Part shown: positions 1 through 20,795 of the stretch, in pieces | Position numbering within the stretch: position 1 is the stretch's first letter | Layout: each line of letters opens with the position of its first letter | DNA from: a virus | Lineage: Duplodnaviria > Heunggongvirae > Uroviricota > Caudoviricetes | Length of the DNA stretch: 20,795 bases | IMG/VR virus record: IMGVR_UViG_2529292920_000022 | Strand: one strand, 5' to 3' | Made by a program: the position numbers and the translations under genes | Notes under the pieces: model-generated | Database searches by the model: none | Told to the model about the DNA's origin: nothing | Seen by the model: the letters and a program-made list of their open reading frames with translations, nothing else

Positions 1-1260
1 ATGCCAAAACTCACAGATATGCAGATCCGCGCATGGATAAAGGCGGGAGACAGATTTGATGGCAAGGCAGACGGCAACGGCCTTTATATTTGCTACCCCA
101 AAAACTACACAGCCCCGTTCTGGCGATTCCGCTATAAGCTCGCAGGAAAGCAGCGGGCTATGGTTATAGGCTCTTACTCCGAACTGTCACTATCAAAAGC
201 CAGAGAAACAGCAAAAGAGCTGTCAGCCAGAGTTGCTCTTGGCTATGACGTAGCAGCAGAGAAACAGGAACGAAAAGCTGAAGCACTGGCAAAAATGGAG
301 GCTGAGAAAAACGCCATGCGTGTTTCAGATCTGGCCTCCGAATACTTCGAGCGCCAGATACTTCCGAGATGGAAACATCCCGATATCCTTCGCCGGAGAA
401 TTGATAAGGATATTAACCCCTGCATTGGGCATATGAAGGTAGAGGACGTTAAGCCACGCCACATTGACGACATGTTGAAAGGTATCGTTGACCGAGGAGC
501 ACCAACGATAGCAACAGATGTATTACGCTGGACACGCCGTATCTTTGACTACGGGATAAAACGCCACGCTCTGGAGATAAACCCTTGTTCAGCGTTTGAA
601 GTATCTGATGCTGGTGGTAAAGAGGTTTCCCGCGACCGTTGGCTAACTCGCGATGAGCTTATCAGGCTATTCGAGGCTATGCGCACCGCAAAAGGATTCA
701 GCCGCCAGAACGAACTGACATTTAAGCTATTGCTGGCACTATGCGTTCGTAAGATGGAGTTATGCGCCGCACGATGGGAAGAGTTTGATTTAGATGGTGC
801 GGTATGGCATTTGCCGGAAGAACGCAGCAAAAACGGAGACCCTATTGATATACCTCTACCTTCCCCAGCCGTTGAATGGTTGAGAGAGCTACACACCTTT
901 TCATGTAATAGCGCATGGGTGCTTCCAGCCAGGAAGATGCAAAACAGAATGATCCCACATATTCAGGAAAGCACTTTGCCCGTAGCACTGGCTAAGGTTC
1001 GCGCCGAAATGCCGGATGTGCCTAATTTCACGATTCACGACTTCCGACGCACCGCACGTACTCATTTAGCAGCGTTGGGTGTTGATCCTGTCGTGGCGGA
1101 ACGATGCCTCAATCATCGCATTAAGGGCGTAGAGGGGATTTATAACCGCCATCAGTATTTTGATGAGCGTAAAGCAGCACTGGCACAGTGGGCTGATCTG
1201 CTGGTGGCACTGGAAAGCGGAAAAGACTACAACGTAACGCCTCTCAGAAGGGCGAACTAA
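1..1260 (+). CDS. int: P4-family tyrosine integrase (CP4-57 IntA-like)
   Basis: 419-aa ORF. N-terminal region (GNGLYICYPKN...WRFRYKLAGKQRAMVIGSY) resembles the arm-binding domain of P4-type integrases; C-terminal region carries catalytic-type motifs (HDFRRTARTHL, NHRIKGVEGIYNRH). An AlpA gene lies downstream, the usual partner of this integrase class. Confidence 0.9.
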   Translation: MPKLTDMQIRAWIKAGDRFDGKADGNGLYICYPKNYTAPFWRFRYKLAGKQRAMVIGSYSELSLSKARETAKELSARVALGYDVAAEKQERKAEALAKMEAEKNAMRVSDLASEYFERQILPRWKHPDILRRRIDKDINPCIGHMKVEDVKPRHIDDMLKGIVDRGAPTIATDVLRWTRRIFDYGIKRHALEINPCSAFEVSDAGGKEVSRDRWLTRDELIRLFEAMRTAKGFSRQNELTFKLLLALCVRKMELCAARWEEFDLDGAVWHLPEERSKNGDPIDIPLPSPAVEWLRELHTFSCNSAWVLPARKMQNRMIPHIQESTLPVALAKVRAEMPDVPNFTIHDFRRTARTHLAALGVDPVVAERCLNHRIKGVEGIYNRHQYFDERKAALAQWADLLVALESGKDYNVTPLRRAN

Positions 1261-1355
1261 CTGAATAGATTGAGCCTAGCTCGACGGGGCGAAAAGCGGG
1301 AAGCCTTACCGCCTGGCTCAATCACAAAATAAGGCGCAGCGTAAAAGGTGACGCA

Positions 1356-2321
1356 ATGAACGACTCTCATGAAACAACAGTGGTGCATAGAAATTTATGG
1401 CAGGAATCAGGTATTCCACCTTTGGACTACTGCACGATAGAGCGAGCATCAAAATTATTAAATTGTGAAATTGATGATATATGGCATTGGAAAGATAGAC
1501 TACATATAGACTTTTATGTCTATGCTGACTTTCTTGATTTCATTGAATCTGATGCCACCATCCACTTCAAAAAAGATGCTAATTTTATAACTGATTTATT
1601 ACTTATGTACCCAGAAGAAGTAAGGTTTACATTTCCTTTTCTTATTACCAGCGCAAGCAACGAAGTTTATATCCCAGCATCTGAAAGCGGTGCTTATGAG
1701 CTATTTTATGCACATAAACCACTGACAGTTGAAGACAGCGACAATAAAAATGTTTTTGAACAAATTGGCAAAAACTCTTTTATTGTAAGAAAATCAATTG
1801 CATGTGGATTGTTGCGTGTACGCGGTAGAACAACACGACATTATCATTCACAAGAATGTGGAGAACCATATGTGCGACTTGAAGCAACATTTGATTGTGA
1901 TCTATATAAATTCAAAATGCAAAGTTCCCAAATTCACCTGAGTAGCCTGTCAGATAAAAACATTTATATAACAAAGGCTGATTTAGAATACCTTCATGAC
2001 GCAAAGGTTAATGGAAGTTTTGACGCAGCTAAGAGCAAAAAACGATACGAAATGGCGGTAGAACAGGAACTAATACCTGAAATAAAAAATAGCAACCATA
2101 ATGCCGAGAGACATGCTGAAAACAGGGAAAAACTTTTCAAATCTGCAATATATCTTTTGTCAAAGTATCCTGATGAATGCCGTGGCAAAAAGAAAGAAAT
2201 AAGCCCTGAGAAGTGGCGGGATTGCATAGTGGCTCATAAAGACGAAATTCCACCGTTAGCAATCACAAATGAAGATGTGATTTTGAGACACTTACGTGCT
2301 GCCGCCAACGGTAAGGGGTAG
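1356..2321 (+). CDS. Hypothetical protein, AT-rich cargo gene between int and alpA (same position as yfjH in CP4-57)
   Basis: 321-aa ORF with an AAAAGG Shine-Dalgarno upstream. Markedly lower GC than the flanking int and alpA. No motif I recognise. Followed by a strong intrinsic terminator. Confidence 0.6.
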   Translation: MNDSHETTVVHRNLWQESGIPPLDYCTIERASKLLNCEIDDIWHWKDRLHIDFYVYADFLDFIESDATIHFKKDANFITDLLLMYPEEVRFTFPFLITSASNEVYIPASESGAYELFYAHKPLTVEDSDNKNVFEQIGKNSFIVRKSIACGLLRVRGRTTRHYHSQECGEPYVRLEATFDCDLYKFKMQSSQIHLSSLSDKNIYITKADLEYLHDAKVNGSFDAAKSKKRYEMAVEQELIPEIKNSNHNAERHAENREKLFKSAIYLLSKYPDECRGKKKEISPEKWRDCIVAHKDEIPPLAITNEDVILRHLRAAANGKG

Positions 2322-2336
2322 AGTAGCTAACTATTC

Positions 2337-2367
2337 AGGCACAGTATCATTACTGTGCCTTTTTATT
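2337..2367 (+). terminator. Rho-independent terminator after the AT-rich cargo ORF
   Basis: 10-bp perfect stem AGGCACAGTA / TACTGTGCCT with a 4-nt loop, followed by a T-rich run. Confidence 0.6.
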
Positions 2368-2435
2368 GTTCATATATGTACAGATACTTCCTCCCGTAAC
2401 GAAGCAACAACTATCGCTAAGAGGTTACGGGAAGC

Positions 2436-2639
2436 ATGAACACCGACACTATTCCTACAAAAGGCTATATCAGACGCTTCCGCCTGGCTGAATTGCTGGG
2501 CGTTAGTGTATCCACCATCGACCGTAAAGTAAGAAACGGTTCACTACCACGTCCGGTAAAGCTGGGAGAAAAAATAACTGCGTTTGATGCGGTTGAGATT
2601 CACAACTGGCTGGCAGAACGCCGCGGGAAGGTGGCCTGA
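2436..2639 (+). CDS. alpA: AlpA-family transcriptional regulator / excisionase-like protein
   Basis: 67-aa ORF; the segment RRFRLAELLGVSVSTIDRKVRNGSLPRPVKLGEKITAFDAVEIHNWL matches the AlpA / MerR-like HTH pattern. Sits next to a P4-type integrase. The RBS region is flanked by an inverted repeat (CCCGTAAC ... GTTACGGG). Confidence 0.85.
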   Translation: MNTDTIPTKGYIRRFRLAELLGVSVSTIDRKVRNGSLPRPVKLGEKITAFDAVEIHNWLAERRGKVA

Positions 2640-2649
2640 TGGAAAAGAA

Positions 2650-3770
2650 AAACCGCCCATTACAGGCGGCTAATTCAGATATTCGCGTATCTGATGTTAC
2701 GCCCCTGACAAAATCCCTTCAAGCACCTGTATGGGTCCACCACATATTGCAATTTTTATTCTCTTTTAAAATATATTCCACGGGCGTCATTAGTGCGAGC
2801 GCCTTGTGGGGTCTTTTGCTGTTATACAGCACCAGATATTCCGCCAGCTTCTGGTTAAATAGCGCCAGATCTTCAAAGAGTAAAATCTCATTAAATTCAA
2901 TAAACTGCTCTCTTAACGTCCGGTTAAAACGTTCACAGATAGCGTTCATTTTTGGCGTGTAGGGATAGGTCCAGAGGTGTTTGATAGCGGCTTCCTGCAG
3001 CGTTTTGTCGAAGTTTCCCAGGAACTCTTTTCCGTTATCTGTGATTATCTGGCTGATACCGACCGGGAACAACCGGGCTGCGCGGCTGAAGAAGTGATTG
3101 ACGATATCACTGTTGAGTGACGGCACAGCCAGCGCCAGCGCGTAATTGCTGCATTCGTCGATCATGGTGATGACATAGCGACGCAGTTCGCCCATTCTGA
3201 GCTCAATGGCGTCCATCCCAATGAGCTCACCTGTCTTTACCGGGCGGTAGTGCTTTGGCCTGCGGGGTTTGGCAGACCGCTTTTTGACAAGCAGTGCCTT
3301 CCCCCGCGATCCCAGACGCACAGGTATCATCCGCATTTTATCATGTGCGGCAGCGATCATTCTGCCGATGGTGGAAACACTCGGACAGGCCAGATAGCGC
3401 TGTTCGCACCAGGGCTTCAGGCGAACAAAAATCTGCTCTTTACCGAGGTTCGGCAGCTCTGTCCTGAGGCGTCGAATCTCTTTCAGCACATCGGGATGCC
3501 AGTGTTTTTTTCGTCGCACCAGAGGTGCCTTACTGTGCGGGATTAGCCCCTCAGGTCCTTCCTTGTTCAGTAACTGACGCCACCAGTAAAGCGTGCGGCA
3601 GGACACGCCAAAGGCTTCAGAAGCTGCAGAAATACCGTGTTTATCCCAGAAGTGCAGAGCCTTCATTCTCATTGTTGCTATATCAGCCATCACTGAAAGC
3701 CTCAACGCATAATCGGCCGTTTGGTAGTACTTAGGATAGCCAACCATCAGATGCTGCATTTGCATAGTGC
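2650..3770 (-). mobile_element. IS481-family-like insertion sequence (single-ORF DDE transposase); boundaries approximate
   Basis: A single minus-strand ORF with an N-terminal HTH and an rve-type DDE core fills the gap between alpA and the next plus-strand gene. Imperfect inverted motifs near both ends (CATCAGAT-containing) are candidate terminal repeats. Exact ends and target-site duplication not resolved. Confidence 0.5.
2719..3765 (-). CDS. DDE transposase (rve / integrase core), IS481-family-like
   Basis: 348-aa ORF. N-terminal HTH (MADIATMRMKALHFWDKHGISAASEAFGVSCRTLYWWRQ) and candidate D, D, E residues (GMDAIEL, ITDNGKEF, NAICERFNRTL). The true start is probably the internal Met near 3690. 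Confidence 0.75.
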   Translation of the reverse strand: MQMQHLMVGYPKYYQTADYALRLSVMADIATMRMKALHFWDKHGISAASEAFGVSCRTLYWWRQLLNKEGPEGLIPHSKAPLVRRKKHWHPDVLKEIRRLRTELPNLGKEQIFVRLKPWCEQRYLACPSVSTIGRMIAAAHDKMRMIPVRLGSRGKALLVKKRSAKPRRPKHYRPVKTGELIGMDAIELRMGELRRYVITMIDECSNYALALAVPSLNSDIVNHFFSRAARLFPVGISQIITDNGKEFLGNFDKTLQEAAIKHLWTYPYTPKMNAICERFNRTLREQFIEFNEILLFEDLALFNQKLAEYLVLYNSKRPHKALALMTPVEYILKENKNCNMWWTHTGA

Positions 3771-5017: not shown

Positions 5018-5189
5018 GCCAACAGGAACACCACAACCACAAAAACGCTACAAAGATGCCCACGGAGCACTCGTTACTGTCGAAAGCGTGTCTCACAACC
5101 GAGTGACGTTTTATCGCGACGGGTATCAATCGCCATGCGTACAACCGCTGGCGCGTTTCATGAAGGAGTTCGCGGAGGTTAACCAATGA
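5010..5189 (+). CDS. Small protein, DUF4222-like
   Basis: 59-aa ORF (MSKPTGTPQPQKRYKDAHGALVTVESVSHNRVTFYRDGYQSPCVQPLARFMKEFAEVNQ). GGAGG RBS 8 nt upstream; start overlaps the end of the upstream gene by 8 nt. Confidence 0.5.
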   Translation: MSKPTGTPQPQKRYKDAHGALVTVESVSHNRVTFYRDGYQSPCVQPLARFMKEFAEVNQ

Positions 5190-5619
5190 TACCCGTCCAG
5201 AAGAAGACATTTTCACTGGCTGGTATGTCGCCAAAATCCAGCAATATGACGGCAAAGTCAGGCATTAATACAGCAGATACAAGCAAAGTTTATCATTTGC
5301 TGGTGGTCGGAACGGATGCCTTAACCATACCAGAAATCTCGGGCGATGATATTAGCATTGAGAAGGTCAGCGGCTGCGCCAGAAAATTTCTGGTCGTAGA
5401 TGATGTCTTCCGCTCGCGTAGTGACTCCACAAAAACCTTCATCCGCGCGCGTGACGTTAACGAAATGAGCGCGATGTACTGTGCATCTGGTGCTTCCAAT
5501 AGCGAGTTTTCGGAGTCCATAAAAAAGAGCTTGCCGTTATGCGGCAACACGGTTTATGGTTATAAGGCACCTCATAAAACGGGTGCCGGGATTGGCGTCC
5601 TGGTAAATCGAATGGCGAC

Positions 5620-5847
5620 ATATGACGCGCCGAGCGTCTTTTTTTATGTCGTAGGTCTGACTCACCCATTTTTTGGGCGTTGGTGTATAATCCAGCGCCT
5701 TTGTCAATCAATGGTGGCTCAGGCAGGGGCTTCTTCGGAAGCGCCGGTATCCATTCGAGCCGGTTACGCCAACCCTGTCTGGGCTACCACCAGCGAAATT
5801 GGCGTTTCCGGTGGTAGCGTTACATGCTATCGAATGGAGGCTGCCAC
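5620..5847 (+). promoter_or_regulatory. Candidate terminator, promoter and structured leader upstream of the icd-like gene
   Basis: Short GC hairpin GACGC-GCCGA-GCGTC followed by a T7-8 run (about 5624-5645); extended -10 TGTATAAT (about 5684-5691); leader with a GCUUC-UUCG-GAAGC tetraloop hairpin and a 9-bp inverted repeat GCTACCACC / GGTGGTAGC; GGAGG RBS before the ATG at 5848. Confidence 0.3.
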
Positions 5848-6042
5848 ATGCTGGCTACTACCCCTACCCAAAAACCGCAATTTATCTGGATTATCGCCGC
5901 AGTTCGCCGCGATTGCCCGACAATTACCGCCAGAATTCATCATATTGCTGCCGAGTCTGAACGCGATGCTCGCCGTTCTCTGGTGCGCGATCACGTCTGC
6001 TTTTTTGCTGGTCGTATCCGCATGGAGGTGGCACATGATTAA
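5848..6042 (+). CDS. Icd-like (cell-division-inhibitor-like) small protein
   Basis: 64-aa ORF MLATTPTQKPQFIWIIAAVRRDCPTITARIHHIAAESERDARRSLVRDHVCFFAGRIRMEVAHD. The FxGR...V...H C-terminal pattern and size match Icd-like proteins of P1/P4-like elements. Good RBS. Confidence 0.55.
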   Translation: MLATTPTQKPQFIWIIAAVRRDCPTITARIHHIAAESERDARRSLVRDHVCFFAGRIRMEVAHD

Positions 6043-6253
6043 AACCTACGATGTGCATATGGATCCCCTCGAACGCACAAGCCAGATCATCACACTGACA
6101 GAAGTGATTAACGACATTCTGGTGAGCAACTCTCCCTCACGAGACGAAAGACTGAAGGCGTTACTCGCGATATTGGATCTCGCCGTTCGTGACGTTCATT
6201 TCCTGCTGGAAGGTGGCGAAATGCCAGTAAAAACGGGGGCAACCAATGAATAA
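6035..6253 (+). CDS. Hypothetical small protein (72 aa)
   Basis: ATG overlaps the icd-like stop (ATGATTAA); GGAGG RBS. It is the real 3' portion of the 355-aa ORF in the track, which I take to be a chimera. Confidence 0.5.
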   Translation: MIKTYDVHMDPLERTSQIITLTEVINDILVSNSPSRDERLKALLAILDLAVRDVHFLLEGGEMPVKTGATNE

Positions 6254-7865: not shown

Positions 7866-8229
7866 AAATGCAGAAATGGCGCTTAGCTCCGCAATCGGAG
7901 AGCAGGTGGCAAAGATTGCTGGTGCTGTGTGGATTCATAACCTTCATTCTACTGGTGAAGAGAAAATGGCAATTCAGACGCCAGAGGGACGCACTATTAC
8001 TACATCTCTGAAGCCGTCAGATGTTTGTGATCTGATTTGCGCATTCATGTACCCAGCAATGAGGACTGTCCACGGCGATAAGTGGAAACTTGCGACAACC
8101 GCTGAATTTGATATGTGGCTAAACAATGATGGCATGCTGACTGATTACGGAATAACCAAGTGGCAGATGCTGGTTAGCCATATCGCAAACGCTATAGACC
8201 ACGTGGGGTACGGTGATGCGAAACATTGA
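7858..8229 (+). CDS. Hypothetical protein (123 aa)
   Basis: Start overlaps the upstream ORF end; its stop overlaps the primase start. Confidence 0.5.
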   Translation: MRENAEMALSSAIGEQVAKIAGAVWIHNLHSTGEEKMAIQTPEGRTITTSLKPSDVCDLICAFMYPAMRTVHGDKWKLATTAEFDMWLNNDGMLTDYGITKWQMLVSHIANAIDHVGYGDAKH

Positions 8230-10972
8230 TCTTATCCGTCAGGTTATCAGTGCGTCTGAAAACAACTGGCCTCATGTGCTGGGCTGCCTGAACATAAATG
8301 TCCCTGACTCTCCGCGCCGTCATGCTCCCTGCCCTGCATGTGGGGGCAAAGATCGATTCCGGTTCGATGACAACGGGCGCGGTAGCTTCATCTGTAATCA
8401 GTGCGGCGCTGGTGATGGGCTGGATTTAATTAAACGCGTAAATAACTGCGACACAACAGAGGCGGCGCTGCTTGCCGCTGATGTTCTGGGTATTGATTAC
8501 CGGACAACGGAAACACCAGAAGCCACCAGCCAGAAACGGGAACAACTGGAAACCGAGCGCCAGCAACGCGAACAGGAGCGCCTGAAAAGGGCGGAGAAGG
8601 ACGAACAACAAAGACGGGATACGTTTTCCCGTCAGTTTGATGACATGCGCAGAAAGGCTGTAAACGGCAAATCTGATTATCTGGTTGCGAAAGGGGTAGG
8701 TGATTTTACATTCCCCGTGTTGCCCGATGGATCTCTGTTGCTGGCGCTGGTGGATAAATCCGGCGCAGTCACAGCAGCACAGACTATTACCTCACATGGT
8801 GAAAAAAGACTCCTGACAGGTTCAGCAAAGCGGGGGGCATATCACGCCATAAACGCACCAGAAACAACACAGAGCATCTTAATCGCAGAAGGGCTGGCAA
8901 CGGCATTATCTGCCCATTTAATTCGTCCAGAGGCGCTGACAGTGGCGGCGATTGATGCCGGGAACCTGTTATATGTCGCCCAGGTACTGCGGGATAAATT
9001 TCCTTCAGCACAAATCATCATTGCTGCGGATAACGACCACAGCGAAGGAAGACAAAACACGGGGAGAATAGCAGCAGAAAAAGCAGCTTTATCTGTTTCT
9101 GGATGGGTGGCATTACCCCCGACAGGTCACAAAGCAGACTGGAATGATTACCACCAAAAACACGGCATTAAATGCGCCACAGAAGCGTTCAATAAGTCAA
9201 TGTACCAACCACAGGGTAATGGCGTGAAACAGGAGCCACAGACCATTGAGGGAAGCGATTTTAAGGTTATGGATACCGACCCACTGAAACCAAGAATAGA
9301 AAGCCGCGAGGATGGTATTTATTGGGTATCTCCGAGAGCTGACAGCCAGAGTGGAGAAATCATCAATAACGAAAGCTGGTTATGTTCTCCGTTAAGCGTT
9401 ATCGGTACTGGCAGAGACGATAAAGACCAGTATCTCATTCTTCGCTGGCTGTCGTTTGGTTCTGAAACGCCGACAACCGCTGCCATTCCACTGGCTGATA
9501 TTGGTGAACGTGAAGGATGGCGCACACTTAAAGCTGGTGGGGTAAATGTCACGACCAAAAGCAGCCTCAGAGCAATACTGGCAGACTGGCTACAACGCAG
9601 TGGCTCTCGTGAATTGTGGCGTGTTGCTCATGCCACTGGCTGGCAATGCGGAGCGTACATCATGCCTGATGGGGAAATCATCGGAACACCTGAAAATCCT
9701 GTGCTGTTCAGCGGGAGAAGCTCAGCCGCAGCCGGATATACCGTCTCAGGGAGCGCGCAAAGCTGGCGTGATAACGTGGCGCGTCTGGCCTTTGGTAACT
9801 ATTCAATGATGACCGGGATCGGCGCAGCACTGGCAGCACCATTGATTGGGCTGGTGGGCGCTGACGGGTTCGGCATTCATTTCTATGAGCAGTCGAGCGC
9901 AGGTAAGACCACCACGGCAAACGTGGCGAGCAGCTTATACGGCAACCCTGATTTACTGCGGCTGACGTGGTACGGAACCGCGCTGGGGCTGGCAAATGAG
10001 GCCGCCGCCCACAATGACGGACTAATGCCGCTTGATGAAGTTGGTCAGGGCGCTGATCCTGTCAGCGTTTCACAGTCTGCCTATGCGTTATTTAACGGTG
10101 TAGGGAAACTGCAAGGCGCTAAAGATGGTGGAAACCGGGATCTAAAACGCTGGCGTACAGTGGCAATCAGCACCGGAGAAATGGATTTAGAAACATTTAT
10201 CGCTACTTCCGGGCGAAAAACCAAAGCCGGGCAACTGGTGCGACTGCTGAATATTCCGTTGAGTAAAGCAGTACGCTTTCACGATTACCAGAACGGAAAA
10301 CAGCACGCAGACGCACTGAAAGACGCTTACCAGCATCACCATGGCGCAGCCGGGCGTGAGTGGATTAAATGGCTGGCAGACCACCAGCAACAGGCTATTA
10401 AAACTGTTCGTGATTGCGAAAGCAGATGGAGAAGCCTGATCCCACCCGATTATGGTGAGCAGGTTCACCGTGTAGCCGCGCGATTTGCCATTCTGGAGGC
10501 CGCATTGTTGTTAGGCGAGGTTGTAACAGGCTGGGATGCTCAGACATGCCGTGATGCGATACAGCACAGCTATAACGCATGGTTGCGCGAGTTCGGCACA
10601 GGTAACAAAGAGCATCAGCAGATTATTGAACAAACGGAGGCATTTCTTAATGCCTATGGGCTTAGCCGTTTTGCACCATTTCCATACAGCCCGGCAGATT
10701 TGCCCATCAAAGATTTAGCCGGATACCGTCAGCGTGGAGAACATGACGAAAGCCCAATGATTTTCTACACATTCCCGGCCACATTTGAAAAGGAGATCGC
10801 ATGTGGTTTCAACGCAAAACAGTTTGCTGAAGTGTTGAAAAAAGCCGGGATGCTAACCCCACCAAACAGCGGTCGTGGATACCAAAGAAAATCACCACGT
10901 ATTCAGGGACGACAAATAAACGTTTATGTACTCAATTACCAGCCAGGAGATTATAACTCATCTGAAGAATGA
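8213..10972 (+). CDS. Primase-helicase (P4 alpha-like: zinc-binding primase region, TOPRIM, C-terminal helicase domain)
   Basis: 919-aa ORF. N-terminal Cys cluster (CPACGGKDRF...CNQCG); TOPRIM-like acidic motifs (IAEGLATALS..., IIIAADNDHSEGRQNTG); Walker A-like GIHFYEQSSAGKTT and Walker B-like LMPLDEVG. The ATG at 8216 is the likely start (8213 is GTG). Confidence 0.9.
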   Translation: MMRNIDLIRQVISASENNWPHVLGCLNINVPDSPRRHAPCPACGGKDRFRFDDNGRGSFICNQCGAGDGLDLIKRVNNCDTTEAALLAADVLGIDYRTTETPEATSQKREQLETERQQREQERLKRAEKDEQQRRDTFSRQFDDMRRKAVNGKSDYLVAKGVGDFTFPVLPDGSLLLALVDKSGAVTAAQTITSHGEKRLLTGSAKRGAYHAINAPETTQSILIAEGLATALSAHLIRPEALTVAAIDAGNLLYVAQVLRDKFPSAQIIIAADNDHSEGRQNTGRIAAEKAALSVSGWVALPPTGHKADWNDYHQKHGIKCATEAFNKSMYQPQGNGVKQEPQTIEGSDFKVMDTDPLKPRIESREDGIYWVSPRADSQSGEIINNESWLCSPLSVIGTGRDDKDQYLILRWLSFGSETPTTAAIPLADIGEREGWRTLKAGGVNVTTKSSLRAILADWLQRSGSRELWRVAHATGWQCGAYIMPDGEIIGTPENPVLFSGRSSAAAGYTVSGSAQSWRDNVARLAFGNYSMMTGIGAALAAPLIGLVGADGFGIHFYEQSSAGKTTTANVASSLYGNPDLLRLTWYGTALGLANEAAAHNDGLMPLDEVGQGADPVSVSQSAYALFNGVGKLQGAKDGGNRDLKRWRTVAISTGEMDLETFIATSGRKTKAGQLVRLLNIPLSKAVRFHDYQNGKQHADALKDAYQHHHGAAGREWIKWLADHQQQAIKTVRDCESRWRSLIPPDYGEQVHRVAARFAILEAALLLGEVVTGWDAQTCRDAIQHSYNAWLREFGTGNKEHQQIIEQTEAFLNAYGLSRFAPFPYSPADLPIKDLAGYRQRGEHDESPMIFYTFPATFEKEIACGFNAKQFAEVLKKAGMLTPPNSGRGYQRKSPRIQGRQINVYVLNYQPGDYNSSEE

Positions 10973-11734: not shown

Positions 11735-12196
11735 ATGGAACTAAAATTTATTGATAACCCTGTGCGATTACAGGCCTTTCTTAACGAGCCAGGCAATACC
11801 GAAAATATTGTTGAGCCGGGGCACACGTACTACATCAAGCCTGATGCGGTATATCTCGGCATCTACGAAGGATTAGTGCTGGCTGGCGTTCATGAAGTGC
11901 GTAACTTCTGGCATAGCGTTGTTGAATGCCATGCGGTGTACGACCCCGGATTCCGTGGTGAATATGCACTGCAAGGGCATCGATTATTCTGCAAATGGCT
12001 TCTCGAAAACTCACCATTCCTTAACAGCATCACCATGGTTCCTGACACCACCAAATACGGACGGGCAATTATCCGTTTGCTTGGCGCTACCCGTGTTGGT
12101 CACCTTGATGATGCTTATATCAGATGTGGTAAACCCGTCGGCGTAACGCTTTATCAGTTAACTCGGCAACAATATAAGGAATTCAGCGAATGTTAA
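11735..12196 (+). CDS. Phage virion-assembly-associated protein, P22 gp14-like by position (tentative)
   Basis: 153-aa ORF translationally coupled (ATGTTAA overlap) to the following three genes. Assigned by position in a gp14-gp7-gp20-gp16-like array; the sequence itself is not diagnostic to me. Confidence 0.4.
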   Translation: MELKFIDNPVRLQAFLNEPGNTENIVEPGHTYYIKPDAVYLGIYEGLVLAGVHEVRNFWHSVVECHAVYDPGFRGEYALQGHRLFCKWLLENSPFLNSITMVPDTTKYGRAIIRLLGATRVGHLDDAYIRCGKPVGVTLYQLTRQQYKEFSEC

Positions 12197-12867
12197 TTAC
12201 CCATATAGCTCATAAACATCTCAATCGTGCCGTATACGAAAAAGGCGGTGATGGTGGTGCCTCTAAAGCTCAGGCGAAGGCCCAGCAGCAGGCAATTGAT
12301 TTGCAGCGCGAGCAGTGGAATACGGTGATGAATAATCTCAAGCCGTATGCAGAAGTCGGATTGCCTGCTTTACAACAACTGCAAGGACTGATGACTCTGG
12401 AAGGGCAGAATAAAGCCGCGAATGATTTCTTTGGTTCTGGTTTATATAAAACACAGGCAGATCAGGCCCGTTATCAGAACCTTGTCTCAGCAGAAGCTAC
12501 CGGGGGGCTTGGCTCAACAGCTACCAGTAACCAGTTATCTTCCATTGCGCCCATGCTTTATAACAATTGGCTCAGTGGGCAAATGCAAAATTATGGAAAC
12601 CTGCTAAATGTCGGGATGAATGCGGCATCAGGGCAGGCAACGGCAGGGCAAAACTACGCCAATAATACCGGACAACTCTTGCAGGGGCTTGGCGCTATTC
12701 GTGCAGGTCAGGCGCAGCAGCCATCCAGTCTTGCGCGTGGTATTGGTGGGGCAGCATCAGGCGCTTTAGCGGGTGCGCAACTTGGTTCCGTTGTTCCTGG
12801 AATAGGAACTGCGGCCGGCGCTATTGGTGGTGGGCTTATTGGTCTTGTTGGGGGGCTTGGATTCTAA
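12190..12867 (+). CDS. Ejection (internal virion) protein, P22 gp7-like
   Basis: 225 aa (P22 gp7 is about 229 aa as I recall). Gln/Ala/Gly-rich with a Gly-rich hydrophobic C-terminus (GIGTAAGAIGGGLIGLVGGLGF). TAATG coupling to the next gene. Confidence 0.55.
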   Translation: MLITHIAHKHLNRAVYEKGGDGGASKAQAKAQQQAIDLQREQWNTVMNNLKPYAEVGLPALQQLQGLMTLEGQNKAANDFFGSGLYKTQADQARYQNLVSAEATGGLGSTATSNQLSSIAPMLYNNWLSGQMQNYGNLLNVGMNAASGQATAGQNYANNTGQLLQGLGAIRAGQAQQPSSLARGIGGAASGALAGAQLGSVVPGIGTAAGAIGGGLIGLVGGLGF

Positions 12868-14288
12868 TGGCGACATGGCAACTTGGCGGGCTGCCTAGCA
12901 TGGCACCGCAAAATGATAATGCTCCTCGTTCTTCCGTTCCTCAGCCTGTGCAGTATCAGCAGCAGCCAAACGTAGGTTTAATGGCGCTACAGGGGCTAAG
13001 AGGCGTTGCTGAGATTAATCAGCAGGCACGTCAACAACAGCGTAAATCAGAGTTTCAGAAAGCATATGCCGGGGCTTTTGAGTCTGGAGACAGAAACAAA
13101 ATGCGCAGTCTTATTTCTGAGTATCCAGAAGAATTTGAAAGCGTTCAGAAAGGGATGGGCTTTATTGATGACGACCAGAGAAATTCTATTGGTCATCTTG
13201 CGACTAGTGCTCAAATCGCATCTTCGCTCGGAACTGGGGCATTTGGAAAATTCATAGCAGATAACGAAGATGAAATGCGTCGCTTGGGAATTTCTCCTGA
13301 GTCTGTTGCCGAAATGCATGTTAATGATCCACAGGGATTCCAGCGGCTTGCTGGTAGTATGGCACTGTTTTCTCTCGGTCATGAGAAGTATTTCGATATC
13401 AAAGATCAAATGGAAGGTCGGGATATTGAGCGAGGCAGGCTGGCAGAGACAATCCGCAGCAATCAGGCTGGCGAAGCACTTCAGGCGAGAGGGCAGGATA
13501 TTAGCCGAGCAAATGCGTTAACGTCAGCATATGCACCAACAGCAGCAATGCAGAATTACAATCAGTACGCTCAAATGTTAAAGGCGGATCCAGAGGGGGC
13601 GGCGGCATTTGCGGCAGCGGCTGGAATTAATACAAACGCCAAAAAATTAATGAGTGTTAGAGAAAACGATGATGGCACTGTCACAAAATACTACACAGAC
13701 GGAAGTGAAGAGCAGGGAAAACTAAACCAGCCAATATCTGGAGATGGGTTTCGTCCAATAGCTTTGCCAACAGCCCAAAAGATCATGGAAAAGTCGCCAG
13801 AAGGGGCTAAAAAAGCTGCTGGATTTGCATACAGGGTTAGGGATGCTCTTGATTCAATAGATACACTGAAAGACCAGCTTAGCCCACAGCGAGTGGCGAT
13901 CATTAATAATGCTTTGGGTAATGGGACGCTGGCTAACTTAACGCTCAGCCCAACAGAGCAGCAATACGTTGTTAATGCTAATGACGCAATAATGGCAATA
14001 CTCCGTCAGGAAACAGGGGCAGCTATCGTACCTGCTGAAATGTCAAAATATTATCAAATGTATTTCCCTCAGCCTGGCGACTCCACAAAAACCATTGATA
14101 CCAAGCGCCGGAAGATGGAAAACCAGTTCAATTCGCTGAAAGCTGCTTCTGGTCGAGCTTATGATGCTTTGCGGGTTATTTCAGCAGTTGACAGAGGAAC
14201 GTCTTCTTCGTCGCAGACATTGCCGCAATCTGAGCAGGTATCACAGCCAGCAGCCAGCAGTAACTTTTCTTCACTATGGGGTGATTAA
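12867..14288 (+). CDS. Ejection protein, P22 gp20-like
   Basis: 473 aa (P22 gp20 is about 471 aa as I recall). Low-complexity Q/A-rich N-terminus. TAATG coupling on both sides. Confidence 0.55.
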   Translation: MATWQLGGLPSMAPQNDNAPRSSVPQPVQYQQQPNVGLMALQGLRGVAEINQQARQQQRKSEFQKAYAGAFESGDRNKMRSLISEYPEEFESVQKGMGFIDDDQRNSIGHLATSAQIASSLGTGAFGKFIADNEDEMRRLGISPESVAEMHVNDPQGFQRLAGSMALFSLGHEKYFDIKDQMEGRDIERGRLAETIRSNQAGEALQARGQDISRANALTSAYAPTAAMQNYNQYAQMLKADPEGAAAFAAAAGINTNAKKLMSVRENDDGTVTKYYTDGSEEQGKLNQPISGDGFRPIALPTAQKIMEKSPEGAKKAAGFAYRVRDALDSIDTLKDQLSPQRVAIINNALGNGTLANLTLSPTEQQYVVNANDAIMAILRQETGAAIVPAEMSKYYQMYFPQPGDSTKTIDTKRRKMENQFNSLKAASGRAYDALRVISAVDRGTSSSSQTLPQSEQVSQPAASSNFSSLWGD

Positions 14289-16393
14289 TGGCTAAAGCAT
14301 GGAAAGATGTTATCGCCTCTCCACAGTATCAGGCGTTAGCACCAGAACAAAAAGCGCAGGCTCAGGAGCAATACTTCAATGAAGTCGTTGCCCCGCAAGC
14401 CGGAGAAAGTGTAGAGCAGGCTAAGCAGGCTTTTTATGCTGCCTATCCACTACCATCAACGAATGAAATAGACCGATCCCAATCAGCAACTCAAAATATT
14501 CAACATACATCATCTGATAATTCTCTTGCGTCAGGGTATGCAAAGTTAGCTACTCAGCAAAGAGAGGGGCTTGAGCGTTCAGCAGAACAGGGAGCCAGTC
14601 TTGGGGCTGCGATGCGCGATGCTATAACAGGCGAAAGCCGAATGACTTCAGAGATGGAGAGACTGCAAAATGTCGCCTCTGCCCCAGAATTGAACTCACT
14701 AAGCATGGATGCCCTAAAGGCTGGATGGTCCCAACTTTTCGGCTCTGACGCGTCTCAGGAAAAGATTCTTCAGGGAATGGGGGCGACATTAAGGCAGGAT
14801 GAGAAGGGGAATACTATCGTTTCTCTGCCATCAGGTGATTATGCCCTGAACAAGCCGGGTTTATCACCGCAAGACCTGACTTCGTTTCTTGCTAATGCGT
14901 TGGCGTTTACACCAGCGGGCAGGGCTGGAACGGTGCTTGGTGCCATAGGAAAATCAGCAGCTACAGATTTAGCACTACAGGGAGCCACCAGCCTTGCTGG
15001 TGGAGAAGATATTGATCCGTTACAAACGGTAATTTCTGCTGGTATTGGTGGTATTGGTAAGGGGCTGGAAAATACAGCGAGTGCGGTTTCGAGGGCTGTT
15101 CGTGGTGATATGTCGCCTGAAGCAAAGGCTGCTGTCGACTTTGCATCGGAAAGAAATCTGCCGTTAATGACCAGTGACATGCTGAAAGATAAAACCTTTA
15201 TGCAGAGTCAGGCTCAGACATTAGGCGAAAGAGTTCCTTTTTTTGGAACCGGTAAGAATCGGCTGAATCAACAACAAGCACGAGAAAATTTAGTCAGAAC
15301 ATTTAGCGATGGTCTGGGTGGCATTTCTGATAAACAGCTTTATGAATCTGCGACTAAAGGGCAACAAAAATTCATTGAGGCAGCAGGAAAGCGATATAAC
15401 CGCATAATTGACGCTATGGGGGATACCCCTGTCGATCTCTCAAACACGGTAAAAGCTATCGACAATCAGATTGCCGTGTTAAGCCGCCCGGGCAAATCTC
15501 AGGATAGAGCCGCGGTAAAAGTCTTGCAGCAATTTAAAGACGATATCACCAGCGGACCAAATGACCTGCGCCTGGCGAGGGAAAACAGAACCGATCTTCG
15601 AAAGCGATTTATTGCGTCATCTGACACTGTTGATAAAGATACGCTCCAGAAAGCCAGCGATATTATCTACAAGGCATATACGGCGGATATGAAAAAAGCC
15701 GTAGCCAAAAATCTTGGAGCAGACGAAGCCATTAATATGGCAAGGGTTGATCGCTCATGGTCTAAATTCAATGACATGATGGGAAGAACGCGCGTTCAAA
15801 AGGCAATAGCCAGCGGCAAGGCCACGCCTGAGGATGTAACAAAACTCGTTTTTAGCCAAAGCCCATCAGAACGTTCTCAGCTTTACAGGCTTCTGGATGA
15901 CAATGGTAGGCAAAACGCACGAGCAGCCATAGTTCAGAATGCTGTAGATAAGGCGACTGATCCGTCTGGAAATATCAGTGTTGAGAAGTTTATTAATGCG
16001 TTACACCGGAACAGGAAGCAATCAGCAACTTTCTTTAAAGGCGTACATGGGAAGGAACTGGACGGCGTTATTAAATACCTCAACGATACAAGACACGCGG
16101 CAAAAGCGAACGTTCAAAACTTAAATGGTCAGCAGCTTTATGGATTGTTAGTTGGTGGTGGCATCATAAACGCAGCAGTATTAGCGGGGATGCTAAAAAC
16201 GGCTGCGTTTGTTGTTCCTGCTGCTGGTGCCGTAGGCGGAGCAGCGAAGGCATACGAAACCCCTGTTATACGAAATGCCTTGTTACGTCTGGCAAATACG
16301 CCAAAAGGTAGCACAGCATATGACAGAGCGATCAGTACGGTCACACAATCGCTCACCAGAGTCGCACAGGCATCACAAAAAGAAGCTCAATAA
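14288..16393 (+). CDS. Ejection protein, P22 gp16-like
   Basis: 701 aa. Ala/Gln/Gly-rich with a C-terminal hydrophobic Gly/Ala segment (LLVGGGIINAAVLAGMLKTAAFVVPAAGAVGGAA). Last gene of the four-gene coupled operon. Confidence 0.55.
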   Translation: MAKAWKDVIASPQYQALAPEQKAQAQEQYFNEVVAPQAGESVEQAKQAFYAAYPLPSTNEIDRSQSATQNIQHTSSDNSLASGYAKLATQQREGLERSAEQGASLGAAMRDAITGESRMTSEMERLQNVASAPELNSLSMDALKAGWSQLFGSDASQEKILQGMGATLRQDEKGNTIVSLPSGDYALNKPGLSPQDLTSFLANALAFTPAGRAGTVLGAIGKSAATDLALQGATSLAGGEDIDPLQTVISAGIGGIGKGLENTASAVSRAVRGDMSPEAKAAVDFASERNLPLMTSDMLKDKTFMQSQAQTLGERVPFFGTGKNRLNQQQARENLVRTFSDGLGGISDKQLYESATKGQQKFIEAAGKRYNRIIDAMGDTPVDLSNTVKAIDNQIAVLSRPGKSQDRAAVKVLQQFKDDITSGPNDLRLARENRTDLRKRFIASSDTVDKDTLQKASDIIYKAYTADMKKAVAKNLGADEAINMARVDRSWSKFNDMMGRTRVQKAIASGKATPEDVTKLVFSQSPSERSQLYRLLDDNGRQNARAAIVQNAVDKATDPSGNISVEKFINALHRNRKQSATFFKGVHGKELDGVIKYLNDTRHAAKANVQNLNGQQLYGLLVGGGIINAAVLAGMLKTAAFVVPAAGAVGGAAKAYETPVIRNALLRLANTPKGSTAYDRAISTVTQSLTRVAQASQKEAQ

Positions 16394-16397
16394 CTGG

Positions 16398-16421
16398 TTA
16401 GCCATGGATGGCTAATTTTTG
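16398..16421 (+). terminator. Candidate terminator between convergent genes
   Basis: Inverted repeat TTAGCCAT / ATGGCTAA followed by TTTTT, immediately after the gp16-like stop. Confidence 0.35.
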
Positions 16422-16831
16422 TTCTTTGCTCTCATCCATAGGTAAAGAAGGGAAAGAACAAGACAAAAAACAGAGAATAGATAACCTACCTCATATGGTG
16501 CGCCAAAAAAATTAGCCATTGATACGGGCAAAAAAGCTGAAGCGATCAAAATTGAAAGGCAAAAAATAAGCCCAGTAATATAGTTTATTAAATTCTTAAA
16601 TGAGAAACGTTTTGCTTGATTTACGGTCTTAACGAACGATCGCTTAACGACGGATAAAAGCAAATAGATGGCGACAGTTGCTAATGCCCCTTTCCACCAG
16701 TCTGGATATAGTTTTGCGACAATCAGACCAAGGAAAACCATGATGACAGCCTGAGCATTCACACCAACCCTCCCTTTAGCTTTGTTTAGAATGGCAATCA
16801 TCATATATCCAAGACATGGCATTTGGTACAT
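16412..16831 (-). CDS. AT-rich integral membrane protein; candidate superinfection-exclusion / moron protein
   Basis: 139-aa ORF with about four hydrophobic helices (VIMVFLGLIVAKLY, ATVAIYLLLSVV, GLIFCLSILIASAFL, LFSVFCLVLSLLYLW). Low GC. Convergent with the ejection operon, the position SieA occupies in P22. Confidence 0.55.
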   Translation of the reverse strand: MYQMPCLGYMMIAILNKAKGRVGVNAQAVIMVFLGLIVAKLYPDWWKGALATVAIYLLLSVVKRSFVKTVNQAKRFSFKNLINYITGLIFCLSILIASAFLPVSMANFFGAPYEVGYLFSVFCLVLSLLYLWMRAKNKN

Positions 16832-17285
16832 AGCTTGGGTCGGGATTTCAAATCCGATCCCCGTTGATGGGGCCGTTACAGTACGCGCATATCCTCTTTA
16901 TGTGAAACAGGAAGATTTTTCTGATATCACTGCCACAGCAAAACACCAATTTCGTGACCAGTACGCGCGCGAGGGGTATCAGTTGCAAAAAATTTTGCAA
17001 CTGCGTCCGACCAGTACGCACACGATGGCGGGGAGCACCATAAAACTGTTCTCTACATAAGACAGAGTGGTGGTGATGTGTTGATTATCGGCGTATATGC
17101 GCACAGGACGCGCTATGACGATGTTTTATGCGGGTACACCAATCACATGTATCTGGTGTGATCAATCGCGTTACATGACATCTCATGTTGTGCTGGTGAT
17201 TATCACGACGTTCTGAATCTGGCCTTTGCCTGATATTTTGCGACAAGTACGCGCGCGTAGCATCGACAGCATACACATTGGATAT

Positions 17286-17486
17286 TCATTTTGTGACCAA
17301 TGCGATAAGTAGCGGGATAAGAATTGATAAAATCAACAGGACGATGATCCACTTTTGATTCTCGTCCATCTTATCTGCTAGGCGACGCTCCATTCCGTGC
17401 ATATCACCGCGAATGGCAATCATCTCATTGCGAACATCCGAGAAGTGGTTGGCTTGATGTTCAATGTGTGGCGTTCTGCCTTTCAT
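17286..17486 (-). CDS. Small single-pass membrane protein (XhlA-like topology)
   Basis: 66 aa: a charged, helical N-terminal part followed by a C-terminal transmembrane segment (WIIVLLILSILIPLLIALV). Confidence 0.4.
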   Translation of the reverse strand: MKGRTPHIEHQANHFSDVRNEMIAIRGDMHGMERRLADKMDENQKWIIVLLILSILIPLLIALVTK

Positions 17487-17567
17487 GTCTGATCCTCACC
17501 TATCGTCACCACCTGATGGTGTATAAAGGTATTAGCCCAAGCAGCTTTCCAATGGGCACTCATGTTT

Positions 17568-19928
<2,361 letters not shown>

Positions 19929-20030: not shown

Positions 20031-20151
20031 GTTGGTTCAGAGCTGGGCTGTGTTGGTTCAAAATGAGTTGATGTTGGTTCAATATTTTAGAAAAAACACA
20101 ATAAAAACAACGCTCTTTACAAATTGAACCAACTGAACCAACTGAACCAAC
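20031..20151. repeat. Iteron array (right copy; inverted relative to the 10998-11108 array)
   Basis: Three GTTGGTTCA at about 20031, 20052 and 20073; an AT-rich spacer; then three tandem TGAACCAAC at about 20125-20151. The flanking CTCTTTACAAAT and CACCTTTT are the reverse complement of the left-copy flanks. Confidence 0.6.
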
Positions 20152-20187: not shown

Positions 20188-20475
20188 ATGATAAAGGACA
20201 GGAAAGCTGAAGAGCTGGAGTCAAAAGGGCTATACCGGAGAGCTGCCGCACGATGGGCAGAAGTCATGATGCTGGCAGATGGCGATAAAGAACGTGAACA
20301 TGCAGCAAACAGACGCTCTGAATGTATCCGTAAGGCGGCACGCCCACCAGCAACTACAGACAGATTCGGAGATTTAAGACAGGCAGTTAAGCGGACTCAT
20401 TCGGCTCTTGGTATGGATGAGGAAGCGAGAGGGTACTTCAGGCGTTATCGCGATAAAGATTGCCAGAGACAGTAA
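20188..20475 (+). CDS. PerC-family transcriptional regulator-like protein
   Basis: 95-aa ORF; the N-terminus MIKDRKAEELESKGLYRRAAARWAEVM matches the PerC/Pch family pattern. TATAAT-like -10 and a GAGAGG RBS lie just upstream, directly next to the iterons. Confidence 0.65.
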   Translation: MIKDRKAEELESKGLYRRAAARWAEVMMLADGDKEREHAANRRSECIRKAARPPATTDRFGDLRQAVKRTHSALGMDEEARGYFRRYRDKDCQRQ

Positions 20476-20795
20476 TGCTCTCTCTGTTTTGGCAAATTAC
20501 CCCTCACTTTGAAGGGATCGGAGCTATAAAAATGGTGTTATCCGGAATCCTCAAATTGAGGATTGTGGAAGAATCAATGGGTTAGGTCATCGTGCAAATT
20601 TGCACTCTGCCAGCCAACGCAATTTCTCGTTGGCGGAAATATCAGGTATTTACTGAACGAACGGTCTACCAGTCTGTTCAGTTACCAGTTGCACATGGCT
20701 GTTTCATGTGAGAACGGAGGTTTTTTTCGGACATCGCTATTGGGTACAGCAATTTCACGAGCAATACGCGCGCGCAGGACAACAAGCCTGAACAT

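Follow-up and report, generated by a model that had tools for sequence, protein, structure and literature searches.

What could a short repeated motif with an alternating CG core be doing in phage-associated DNA that holds no convincing genes? The question is raised by a gap of ~455 bp between two minus-strand genes (16412-16831 and 17286-17486) in a 20,795-nucleotide (nt) stretch of Caudoviricetes DNA (IMG/VR record IMGVR_UViG_2529292920_000022), the whole of which is called the window below and which is a P4-type integrative, satellite-like island. A reading made from the sequence alone had described the motif in this gap, with one more copy beyond a perC-like gene, and had offered a regulator-binding site, a small repeated element, and a recombination scar as explanations. 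We found that the motif corresponds to a segment of the small terminase (TerS) genes of Sf6-type phages, and we give an even chance to the reading that the island copies mimic pac sites, the sites that TerS would recognize, and so serve to hijack headful packaging.

The 22-mer TTTCGTGACCAGTACGCGCGCG occurs exactly at 16950-16971 and with three mismatches at 17236-17257 (two matches, with none expected from 100 shuffles). Its 16-nt core, GACCAGTACGCGCGCG, is present in four copies when up to three mismatches are allowed, all of them on the plus strand, with starts at 16956 (no mismatch), 17009 (two mismatches), 17242 (one), and 20759 (two), referred to here as copies A to D (Table 1). The chance expectation for the core is 0.07, and four copies were reached in no shuffle. 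The recurring CG-core motif is thus real, and so is the copy placed at about 20760, beyond the perC-like gene. The degenerate copies that had been proposed fared unevenly: the one near 17010 matches 14 of 16 core bases, whereas those near 16875 and 17290 are half-copies, neither of which is significant by itself. The core position of the latter, 17295, lies 53 nt past 17242, a spacing equal to that between 16956 and 17009, and the spacings of the motif in the window are 53, 80, and 233 nt. All copies between 16876 and 17310 lie inside the ~455-bp gap. The half-copy at 16876, copy A, and copy B occupy three different frames of the ORF (open reading frame) at 16782-17060, so the copies in the window do not share one frame of a paralogous coding sequence; a coding counterpart does exist elsewhere, in terS.

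Correspondence of the motif to small terminase codons

Judged from the sequence, the motif is the DNA of TerS codons ~57-67 (E57-R67), the segment that follows the helix-turn-helix DNA-binding domain. The 22-mer is the stretch that encodes E-F-R-D-Q-Y-A-R in Sf6-type terS genes. When IMG/VR was scanned with a degenerate 22-mer in its TTT form, 36 loci were returned, seven of which are coding; the remainder lie in short ORFs or non-coding DNA, and many are redundant copies from E. coli islands. A pattern with TTC in place of TTT gave five IMG/VR loci, every one within terS, and this confinement indicates that the non-coding copies keep TTT. In GC-rich phage contigs the 22-mer falls inside genes and encodes ...TVFRWL....EF(R/C)DQYARAREAQAD..ADEI..., and in real genes it encodes F-R/C-D-Q/K-Y-A-R-A of TerS proteins. 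The proteins that carry it are homologues of Sf6 TerS (gene 1) and of HK620 TerS; among solved structures, their matches are 3HEF and 4DYQ of the Sf6 small terminase (E = 1e-80). The terS DNA of Sf6 and HK620 reads GCAAAGCATGAGGATTTTCGCGACAAGTACGCG, GCAAAGCATGAGGATTTTCGCGACAAGTACGCGAAGG; over Sf6/HK620-type and related terS genes, that of a co-resident prophage included, identity extends to 18-22 nt. The Arg wobble position and the Q/K position, which vary in terS, also vary among the non-coding E. coli copies. The Sf6 pac site itself reportedly lies in the part of terS that encodes the DNA-binding domain.

The terS genes themselves point to a function of this DNA beyond its codons. We aligned by codon 24 dereplicated Sf6-type terS genes from IMG/VR, which are related genes compared without phylogenetic correction. 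Of ~88 conserved degenerate columns, just two are occupied in every gene and show no synonymous change: D60 (GAC in 24 of 24) and Y62 (TAC in 24 of 24). Neighboring codons are nearly fixed (E57 GAG 18/19, F58 TTT 22/24, A63 GCG 20/24), and other columns of terS are mixed, with ratios from 11:10 to 20:3 for Asp and of 18:3 and 15:9 for Tyr. The simplest reading of this synonymous freezing at codons ~57-63 is that a cis-acting DNA site sits within phage terS at the position of the motif. A pac site inside terS is attributed to Sf6 in bioRxiv 10.1101/851345, which cites Leavitt et al. 2013.

A 31-nt unit in genomes of many phyla

The sequence-only reading had called for a genome-wide count of the motif, with background frequency as the alternative. 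One genome per species was scanned (185,579 species) with the pattern TTTYGNGACMAGTACGCGCGCG, which matched only 54 loci, placing the motif far from background frequency. Outside TerS genes these loci represent 50 distinct contexts, most of them non-coding and nearly all in short ORFs; two Nocardia matches fall in longer ORFs and possibly belong to genuine coding sequence. The hosts are Alpha-, Beta-, Gamma-, and Deltaproteobacteria, Acidobacteria, Bacteroidota, Nitrospinaceae, and Saccharibacteria, as well as AT-rich Pasteurellaceae and Marinicella. In the flanks, which the pattern leaves unconstrained, information is found as GAG at -3 to -1 and CGAGGG at +22 to +27 and is zero beyond. These edges are fixed and delimit a discrete unit of ~31 nt, GAG-22mer-CGAGGG, that encodes E-F-R/C-D-Q-Y-A-R-A-R in the codon form of the TerS gene L171 (loci used for comparison carry L numbers). 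The unit stays GC-rich in AT-rich genomes (GC 0.34-0.42), and this retention, together with the fixed edges, argues against decay, from which ragged edges would be expected. Alignment of the copies with their flanks did not yield the longer unit that had been envisaged, since the two regions of the window align over only 33 nt. The idea of a small repeated, miniature transposable element finds no support, there being no inverted ends or target duplications, and with the flanks of 50 copies carrying no information beyond ~31 nt we rejected an identity as a miniature inverted-repeat transposable (MITE) or REP-like element. A 32-nt query with the motif gave only chance-level matches, in actinophages, among cultured phages, and a 1.4-kb region of the window matched the INPHARED phage collection only through an insertion sequence (IS).

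The few annotated contexts are integrase/primase islands. Their genes include AntA, primases of the D5_N and Prim-Pol types, and P4-type integrases, the last of these near copies in L051 and L075. In L085 and L084 the copy lies 60-200 nt past a primase gene, within an intergenic gap of 160 nt in L085. In the island family the copies keep one orientation relative to the integrase and primase genes, regardless of local transcription. Tandem copies 59-63 nt apart occur in five or six taxa: we observed two to three such copies in L051, L065, L067, L073, and L083 (Alcaligenaceae, Fulvimarina, Lichenibacterium, Rhodothermaceae, and Zoogloeaceae), and in L073 the repeated unit grows to 30 nt with a 32-nt spacer. 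The 59-63 nt spacing, like the 53 nt found twice in the window, could reflect helical phasing or an organization resembling a mini-array. Solitary CRISPR repeats and mini-arrays are similar in having a ~30-nt unit in non-coding DNA of mobile elements and, in several taxa, two to three copies at this distance, but the copies here match no repeat family, and the spacings in the window are different. An identity as a CRISPR-like mini-array is not supported, as there is no Rfam match, CRISPR direct-repeat families included (E <= 10), no hairpin, and no cas genes. A lone copy was observed in Serratia sp. 2723 (L053, 6068-6089), ~400 nt upstream of dinD and with fimbrial genes but no island on its other side. 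An island that has since been lost from the integration site used in E. coli may have left this copy as a scar.

The island, its cargo, and candidate helper phages

The island is inserted between yicC and dinD, with attachment-site core repeats at both junctions (attL and attR, GTGTACATA(A/G)(G/A)GGTGTACATAAT; the attR core in L003 is GTGTACATAAGGGTGTACATAAT). The right junction lies ~90 bp past the end of the window, and additional TGTACA repeats stand beside the integrase gene. The closest match is the island of strain 755, to which the window is ~99.8% identical over the aligned part, the IS aside; in strain 755 the 147-aa minus-strand gene that is split here by the IS21-family element is intact. 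Besides the genes in Table 1, the island encodes AntA, ash, and Icd-like proteins and a helix-turn-helix protein of the AlpA type. The genes of the P22-like cluster are annotated as phage DNA ejection or injection proteins, and no satellite family known to us from descriptions encodes such proteins itself. Genes for capsid, tail, and terminase were not detected among the scanned ORFs of the window (PHROGs/Pfam; several ORFs have no family match), and the same family scans detected no island-encoded homologue of TerS, Rpp, or Ppi.

Table 1. Coordinates of the motif copies and of other features in the 20,795-nt window
Feature	Positions	Strand	Description
Copy A	16950..16971	+	exact 22-mer TTTCGTGACCAGTACGCGCGCG; extended unit CAA-22mer-AGGGG, ~16947-16976
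Copy B	17003..17024	+	core GACCAGTACGCACACG at 17009-17024, 14/16; 53 nt past copy A
Copy C	17236..17257	+	TTTTGCGACAAGTACGCGCGCG, 19/22; core 15/16; followed by TAGCATCGA
Copy D	20753..20774	+	TTTCACGAGCAATACGCGCGCG, 18/22; core 14/16; near the right end of the island
Weak partial copy	16876..16891	+	TTACAGTACGCGCATA; 10/16 core bases, right half only (CAGTACGCGC)
Weak partial copy	17289..17310	+	TTTTGTGACCAATGCGATAAGT; left half only (TTTTGTGACCAAT); core from 17295 matches 8/16
Perfect 24-nt palindrome CAGTTGCAAAAAATTTTGCAACTG	16980..17003	.	between copies A and B
Conserved, mostly non-coding block with copies A-C	16759..17266	.	between variable cargo positions 16413-16758 and 17267-17610
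P4-type tyrosine integrase	1..1260	+	Arm-DNA-bind_3, Phage_int_M, and Phage_integrase domains
int-alpA RNA	1269-1335		Rfam, 60.6 bits, passes gathering score
isrK RNA	5567-5644		Rfam, 67 bits, passes gathering score
C4 antisense RNA	5707-5794		Rfam, 79.5 bits, passes gathering score
TOPRIM/DUF927 primase-helicase	8213..10972	+	phrog_1139 DNA primase, E = 6e-178
P22-like internal virion/DNA-ejection cluster	11735..16393	+	homologues of P22 genes 14, 7, 20, 16; PHROGs/Pfam E 1e-61 to 5e-179
139-aa predicted membrane-protein gene (cargo position 1)	16412..16831	-	no family match; other genes instead in L004, L005
66-aa gene	17286..17486	-	phrog_6324, function unknown; 3' end overlaps weak copy 17289-17310
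IS21-family element	17707..19608	+	istA 17793-18815, istB to 19542; target duplication GCTAT
PerC-family activator gene	20188..20475	+	Pfam PerC, E = 3e-33

The DNA around copies A to C is a conserved block between exchangeable genes. A search with 16832-17290 recovered the block, at 95-99% identity, from 545 of the 5426 complete E. coli genomes. Islands exchange the genes to its left and right, and the wider stretch 16400-17706 is accordingly preserved in no more than 29 genomes. Crossover at the copies is visible, in keeping with the suggestion of a recombination scar: in L005 a 53-bp segment is deleted exactly between copies A and B, and homology to islands with abortive-infection (Abi) cargo stops at 17266, 9 nt past copy C, where an Abi gene replaces the 66-aa gene. 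Homology to L004 ends at 20721, just ahead of copy D, which lies ~280 nt past perC. Many related islands have a copy ~50 nt past the perC stop codon, and in L002, L005, and L006 this copy and copy C bracket the 66aa-147aa-perC module. A RelE toxin-antitoxin cassette of Haemophilus islands, which carry AntA and a D5_N primase, lies between two copies 816 bp apart. The copies also serve as recombination points at cargo junctions.

Several further observations concern this region. At the left cargo position strains differ in which membrane protein is encoded (139, 146, or 204 aa), and at the right one they have an Abi-family gene or the 66-aa gene (also L004 6803-7780); the two positions look like a hotspot for defense and accessory genes. 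In E. coli Survcare253 (L006, 5001) the part of the block from window position 17150 rightward is fused to what is left of the rusA gene of a lambdoid prophage, so that a deletion or recombination event has attached the 73aa-147aa-perC module of L006 to another mobile element. The A/T center of the palindrome between copies A and B varies among strains while its arms remain complementary, and a similar sequence, GTGCAAATTTGCAC, is found at ~20593; the palindrome is gone in the L005 deletion and is therefore dispensable there. About 40 nt upstream of the perC start, at 20119-20151, there are three overlapping repeats spaced by 9 bp (ACAAATTGAACCAAC once and ACCAACTGAACCAAC twice) that may be a regulatory array. 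The isrK/C4 pair falls within the ORF at 5186-6253, which is annotated elsewhere as "ash family protein," an annotation that may hide an RNA-based immunity region of the P4/P1 type. A resemblance of copy D to a Mu end or MuA site (13 of 20 bases) was considered and dropped.

Candidate helper phages occur in some island-bearing strains. Strain 97-3250 carries the island (L004) together with a P22-like prophage (L181) that has genes for TerS, a PBSX-family large terminase (TerL), portal, P22-type coat, gp4, and gp10. The terS gene of this prophage reads ...GAGTTTCGTGACCAGTACGCGAAG, CAGGAGTTTCGTGACCAGTACGCGAAG and shares with island copy A 18 contiguous identical bases (TTTCGTGACCAGTACGCG), wobble bases included. 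The island block is also present in O111:H8 strain 02-3334, alongside a complete P22-like prophage, the terS of which is identical to Sf6 gp1. In the latter strain the gp7-type "DNA transfer protein" gene of the prophage (L187, 21911-23916) is split by IS1203 and the island homologue is intact, and it is conceivable that the island complements the split gene. Among the 5426 complete E. coli genomes, the 5' half of an Sf6-type terS is found in 237, and 730 have this or the block; the two occur together in 52 genomes, with 23.8 expected (hypergeometric p = 2e-8, a value that ignores clonal structure).

Proposed packaging-site mimicry and its rivals

According to the pac-mimicry reading, the TerS ring of a P22/Sf6-like helper that is replicating would bind the island copies as a surrogate pac site and pass the DNA on to the large terminase. 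Island DNA, either excised and replicated or still chromosomal, would then be cut and packaged headful into helper capsids in the plus direction. Several copies in the same orientation, free of coding constraint, could compete well with the single site of the helper. The motif would also be the only sequence common to otherwise unrelated modules, and we propose that crossovers concentrate there for that reason, placing the copies at cargo junctions. Of the earlier proposal of a regulator-binding site, the binding site would then stand, since a site for a protein is the best-supported explanation, with a phage small terminase rather than a transcription regulator as the likely binder.

Packaging-site piracy by satellites is known from SaPI pac/terS, E. 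coli PICI cos with Rpp, and P4 cos. The present island resembles these systems in being an integrative element with integrase, replication, and immunity genes, in showing no capsid or terminase genes among its scanned ORFs, and in carrying a sequence that a helper terminase should recognize. It differs in that no TerS, Rpp, or Ppi of its own was detected, in its presumed helper, a P22/Sf6-like podovirus, in its multicopy site shared across phyla, and in supplying ejection proteins. With P4-like satellites it shares the P4-type integrase, an AlpA-type helix-turn-helix gene with int-alpA RNA, C4/isrK, Icd-like and ash genes, a large primase, and variable cargo beside a conserved backbone; unlike them, it shows no psu, delta, sid, or P2-type cos, and its virion-related genes are P22-like, not P2-related. 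Phages with pac in their own terS (P22 gene 3, Sf6 gene 1, SPP1) offer another comparison: the motif is directional and equals an Sf6-type terS segment under synonymous constraint, but the island copies stand outside terS, are non-coding, belong to an element in which no terminase was detected, and number four to six rather than one. The 22-bp pac site of P22 (PMC9611059) is unrelated in sequence to the motif. PLE pac/TerS of Vibrio (bioRxiv 10.1101/2024.04.22.590561) is a precedent for packaging-site piracy.

Several points weigh against pac mimicry. One pac site would suffice, and multiple copies at cargo junctions are not required. About 90% of the island-bearing genomes have no resident Sf6-type terS, strain 755 included. 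The E. coli island copies match the terS of local helpers through ...TACGCG only and then read CGCGCG where the phages have AAGGCA, so that only the left 18-21 nt are shared with the "YAKATE" class of TerS that the local helpers encode. The CGCGCG that follows TACGCG makes the CG core fit a "YARARE" class of TerS and not the "YAKATE" class; the "YARARE" class was not found in E. coli, where P22-like prophages carry the "YAKATE" class. The synonymous-site analysis rests on 24 related genes with their kinship ignored, the co-occurrence test disregards clonal structure, and the term satellite has been shown to apply to a handful of the 50 non-enteric contexts, the annotated ones. Specific binding of TerS to pac has, moreover, been hard to show in vitro (PMC9611059).

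If the copies had no function as a site, they could be a short shared stretch at which islands and phages recombine and which for that reason flanks exchanged cargo. The 53-bp deletion between copies A and B, the Abi cargo that begins 9 nt past copy C, and the direct copies around the 66aa-147aa-perC modules (L002, L005, L006) and the Haemophilus RelE cassette all speak for this. Short conserved stretches between the modules of lambdoid and P22-like phages are said to have been called "boundary sequences" in the description of the HK620 genome, and they are likewise found at junctions of exchangeable modules where recombination is visible; however, those stretches are local to related phages, whereas the unit described here crosses phyla and coincides with a constrained terS segment. 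A passive crossover point would not hold 22-31 nt across phyla, sharp-edged and GC-rich even in AT-rich genomes, and it would leave the synonymous constraint on the same terS bases unexplained, which makes a mere junction sequence unlikely; as a secondary consequence it is compatible with pac mimicry. Rather more doubtful is that the copies are functionless remnants of terS genes that an ancestral phage carried and that have since decayed or been duplicated. Such debris would account for the equality of the motif with terS coding DNA, for the slightly greater upstream similarity that copy A keeps to Sf6 terS (GCAAAACAC compared with GCAAAGCAT; GCAAARCA), and for the frequent variation of non-coding copies at codon-wobble positions. 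On the other hand, tblastn with five TerS proteins gave nothing in the window apart from 8-12-residue matches at copies A, C, and D (E > 1); the copies lie in three frames; the 50 contexts share the same two boundaries; some intergenic gaps, such as the 160-nt gap in L085, are too short for a gene remnant; and the block is conserved in 545 genomes while its neighbors vary. An identity as a decayed terS pseudogene was rejected on the lack of residual TerS similarity beyond those residues and on the different frames.

Copies A to C lie in the promoter or 5' region of the 139-aa minus-strand gene, within a string of minus-strand genes, the core of copy C (TACGCGCGCGTA) is a 12-nt palindrome, and 18-22 nt are perfectly complementary to terS mRNA. 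These features would suit an operator for a regulator of the island or helper, or a minus-strand antisense RNA (17286 -> 16831) that represses the TerS of the helper, as would a copy that precedes the isrK/C4 immunity RNAs by ~170 nt in each of four related P4-like satellites (L011, L022, L026, L031). We think a regulatory or RNA element improbable, as the copies have no Rfam match (whole window, and a permissive search of 16300-17750 at E <= 10), the 454-nt gap with copies A to C shows no excess folding stability (z = -1.66 and -1.29 for the two strands), a promoter and terminator scan showed no enrichment of promoter-like sites, and sharing across phyla is not expected of a regulator site. 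Copies are sense to local transcription in Haemophilus islands, past perC, and upstream of isrK, so an antisense role would not be general. That the P4-type integrase or excisionase uses the motif as an attachment or arm site, or that the copies are attachment sites left over from tandem integrations, is very unlikely. Copy D does lie ~100 nt before the attR core, a similar copy stands next to dinD in Serratia, direct repeats flank modules, and P4-type integrases are near copies in L051 and L075; but the motif is absent from the attL side, with the IS subtracted, ~1.7 kb separates copies A to C from the attachment site, and terS identity and synonymous constraint would go unexplained. Flanking copies also differ at several bases and are therefore not fresh duplications. 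The motif was rejected as the attachment site of the island because the junction repeats, GTGTACATA..GGTGTACATAAT, are a different and unrelated sequence. Hardly credible, finally, are iterons of a replication origin bound by the island primase-helicase, to which direct repeats in non-coding DNA of primase-encoding elements and the copies just past the primase genes of L085 and L084 might point: iterons are specific to a replicase and would not be expected to match terS genes, whereas the unit accompanies three unrelated replicases (TOPRIM/DUF927, D5_N, and Prim-Pol) and lies 5.9 kb from the primase gene in the window.

Pac mimicry can be extended into a broader proposal, which we regard as possible but hold only tentatively: GAG-TTTYGNGACCAGTACGCGCGCG-CGAGGG (~31 nt) would be the ancestral Sf6-type TerS site, embedded in terS and copied into the non-coding DNA of many unrelated islands (Enterobacteria, Pasteurellaceae, Alphaproteobacteria, Acidobacteria, and Bacteroidota), where it would act both as a near-universal ticket for headful packaging and as a crossover point for defense and accessory cassettes, and the E. 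coli members would be a previously undescribed type of satellite with its own P22-type ejection proteins. Packaging-site piracy by satellites and pac sites inside terS genes are already known. New would be a terS-derived, multicopy, non-coding site, its near-identity in islands of many phyla, and a P4-like island with P22-type ejection proteins; a search of the incomplete literature at hand found no description of the motif or of satellites with P22-type ejection proteins. If pac mimicry is the right reading, it would give the exact recognition sequence for a large family of terminases whose DNA specificity has resisted biochemistry, and islands competent for packaging could be recognized by a simple sequence marker across many phyla. 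The location of island cargo hotspots would be explained as well, and a family of satellites would be defined that parasitize P22/Sf6-like phages of E. coli, among them those of the O26 and O111 Shiga-toxin lineages, with PerC-type virulence regulators and abortive-infection genes as their cargo.

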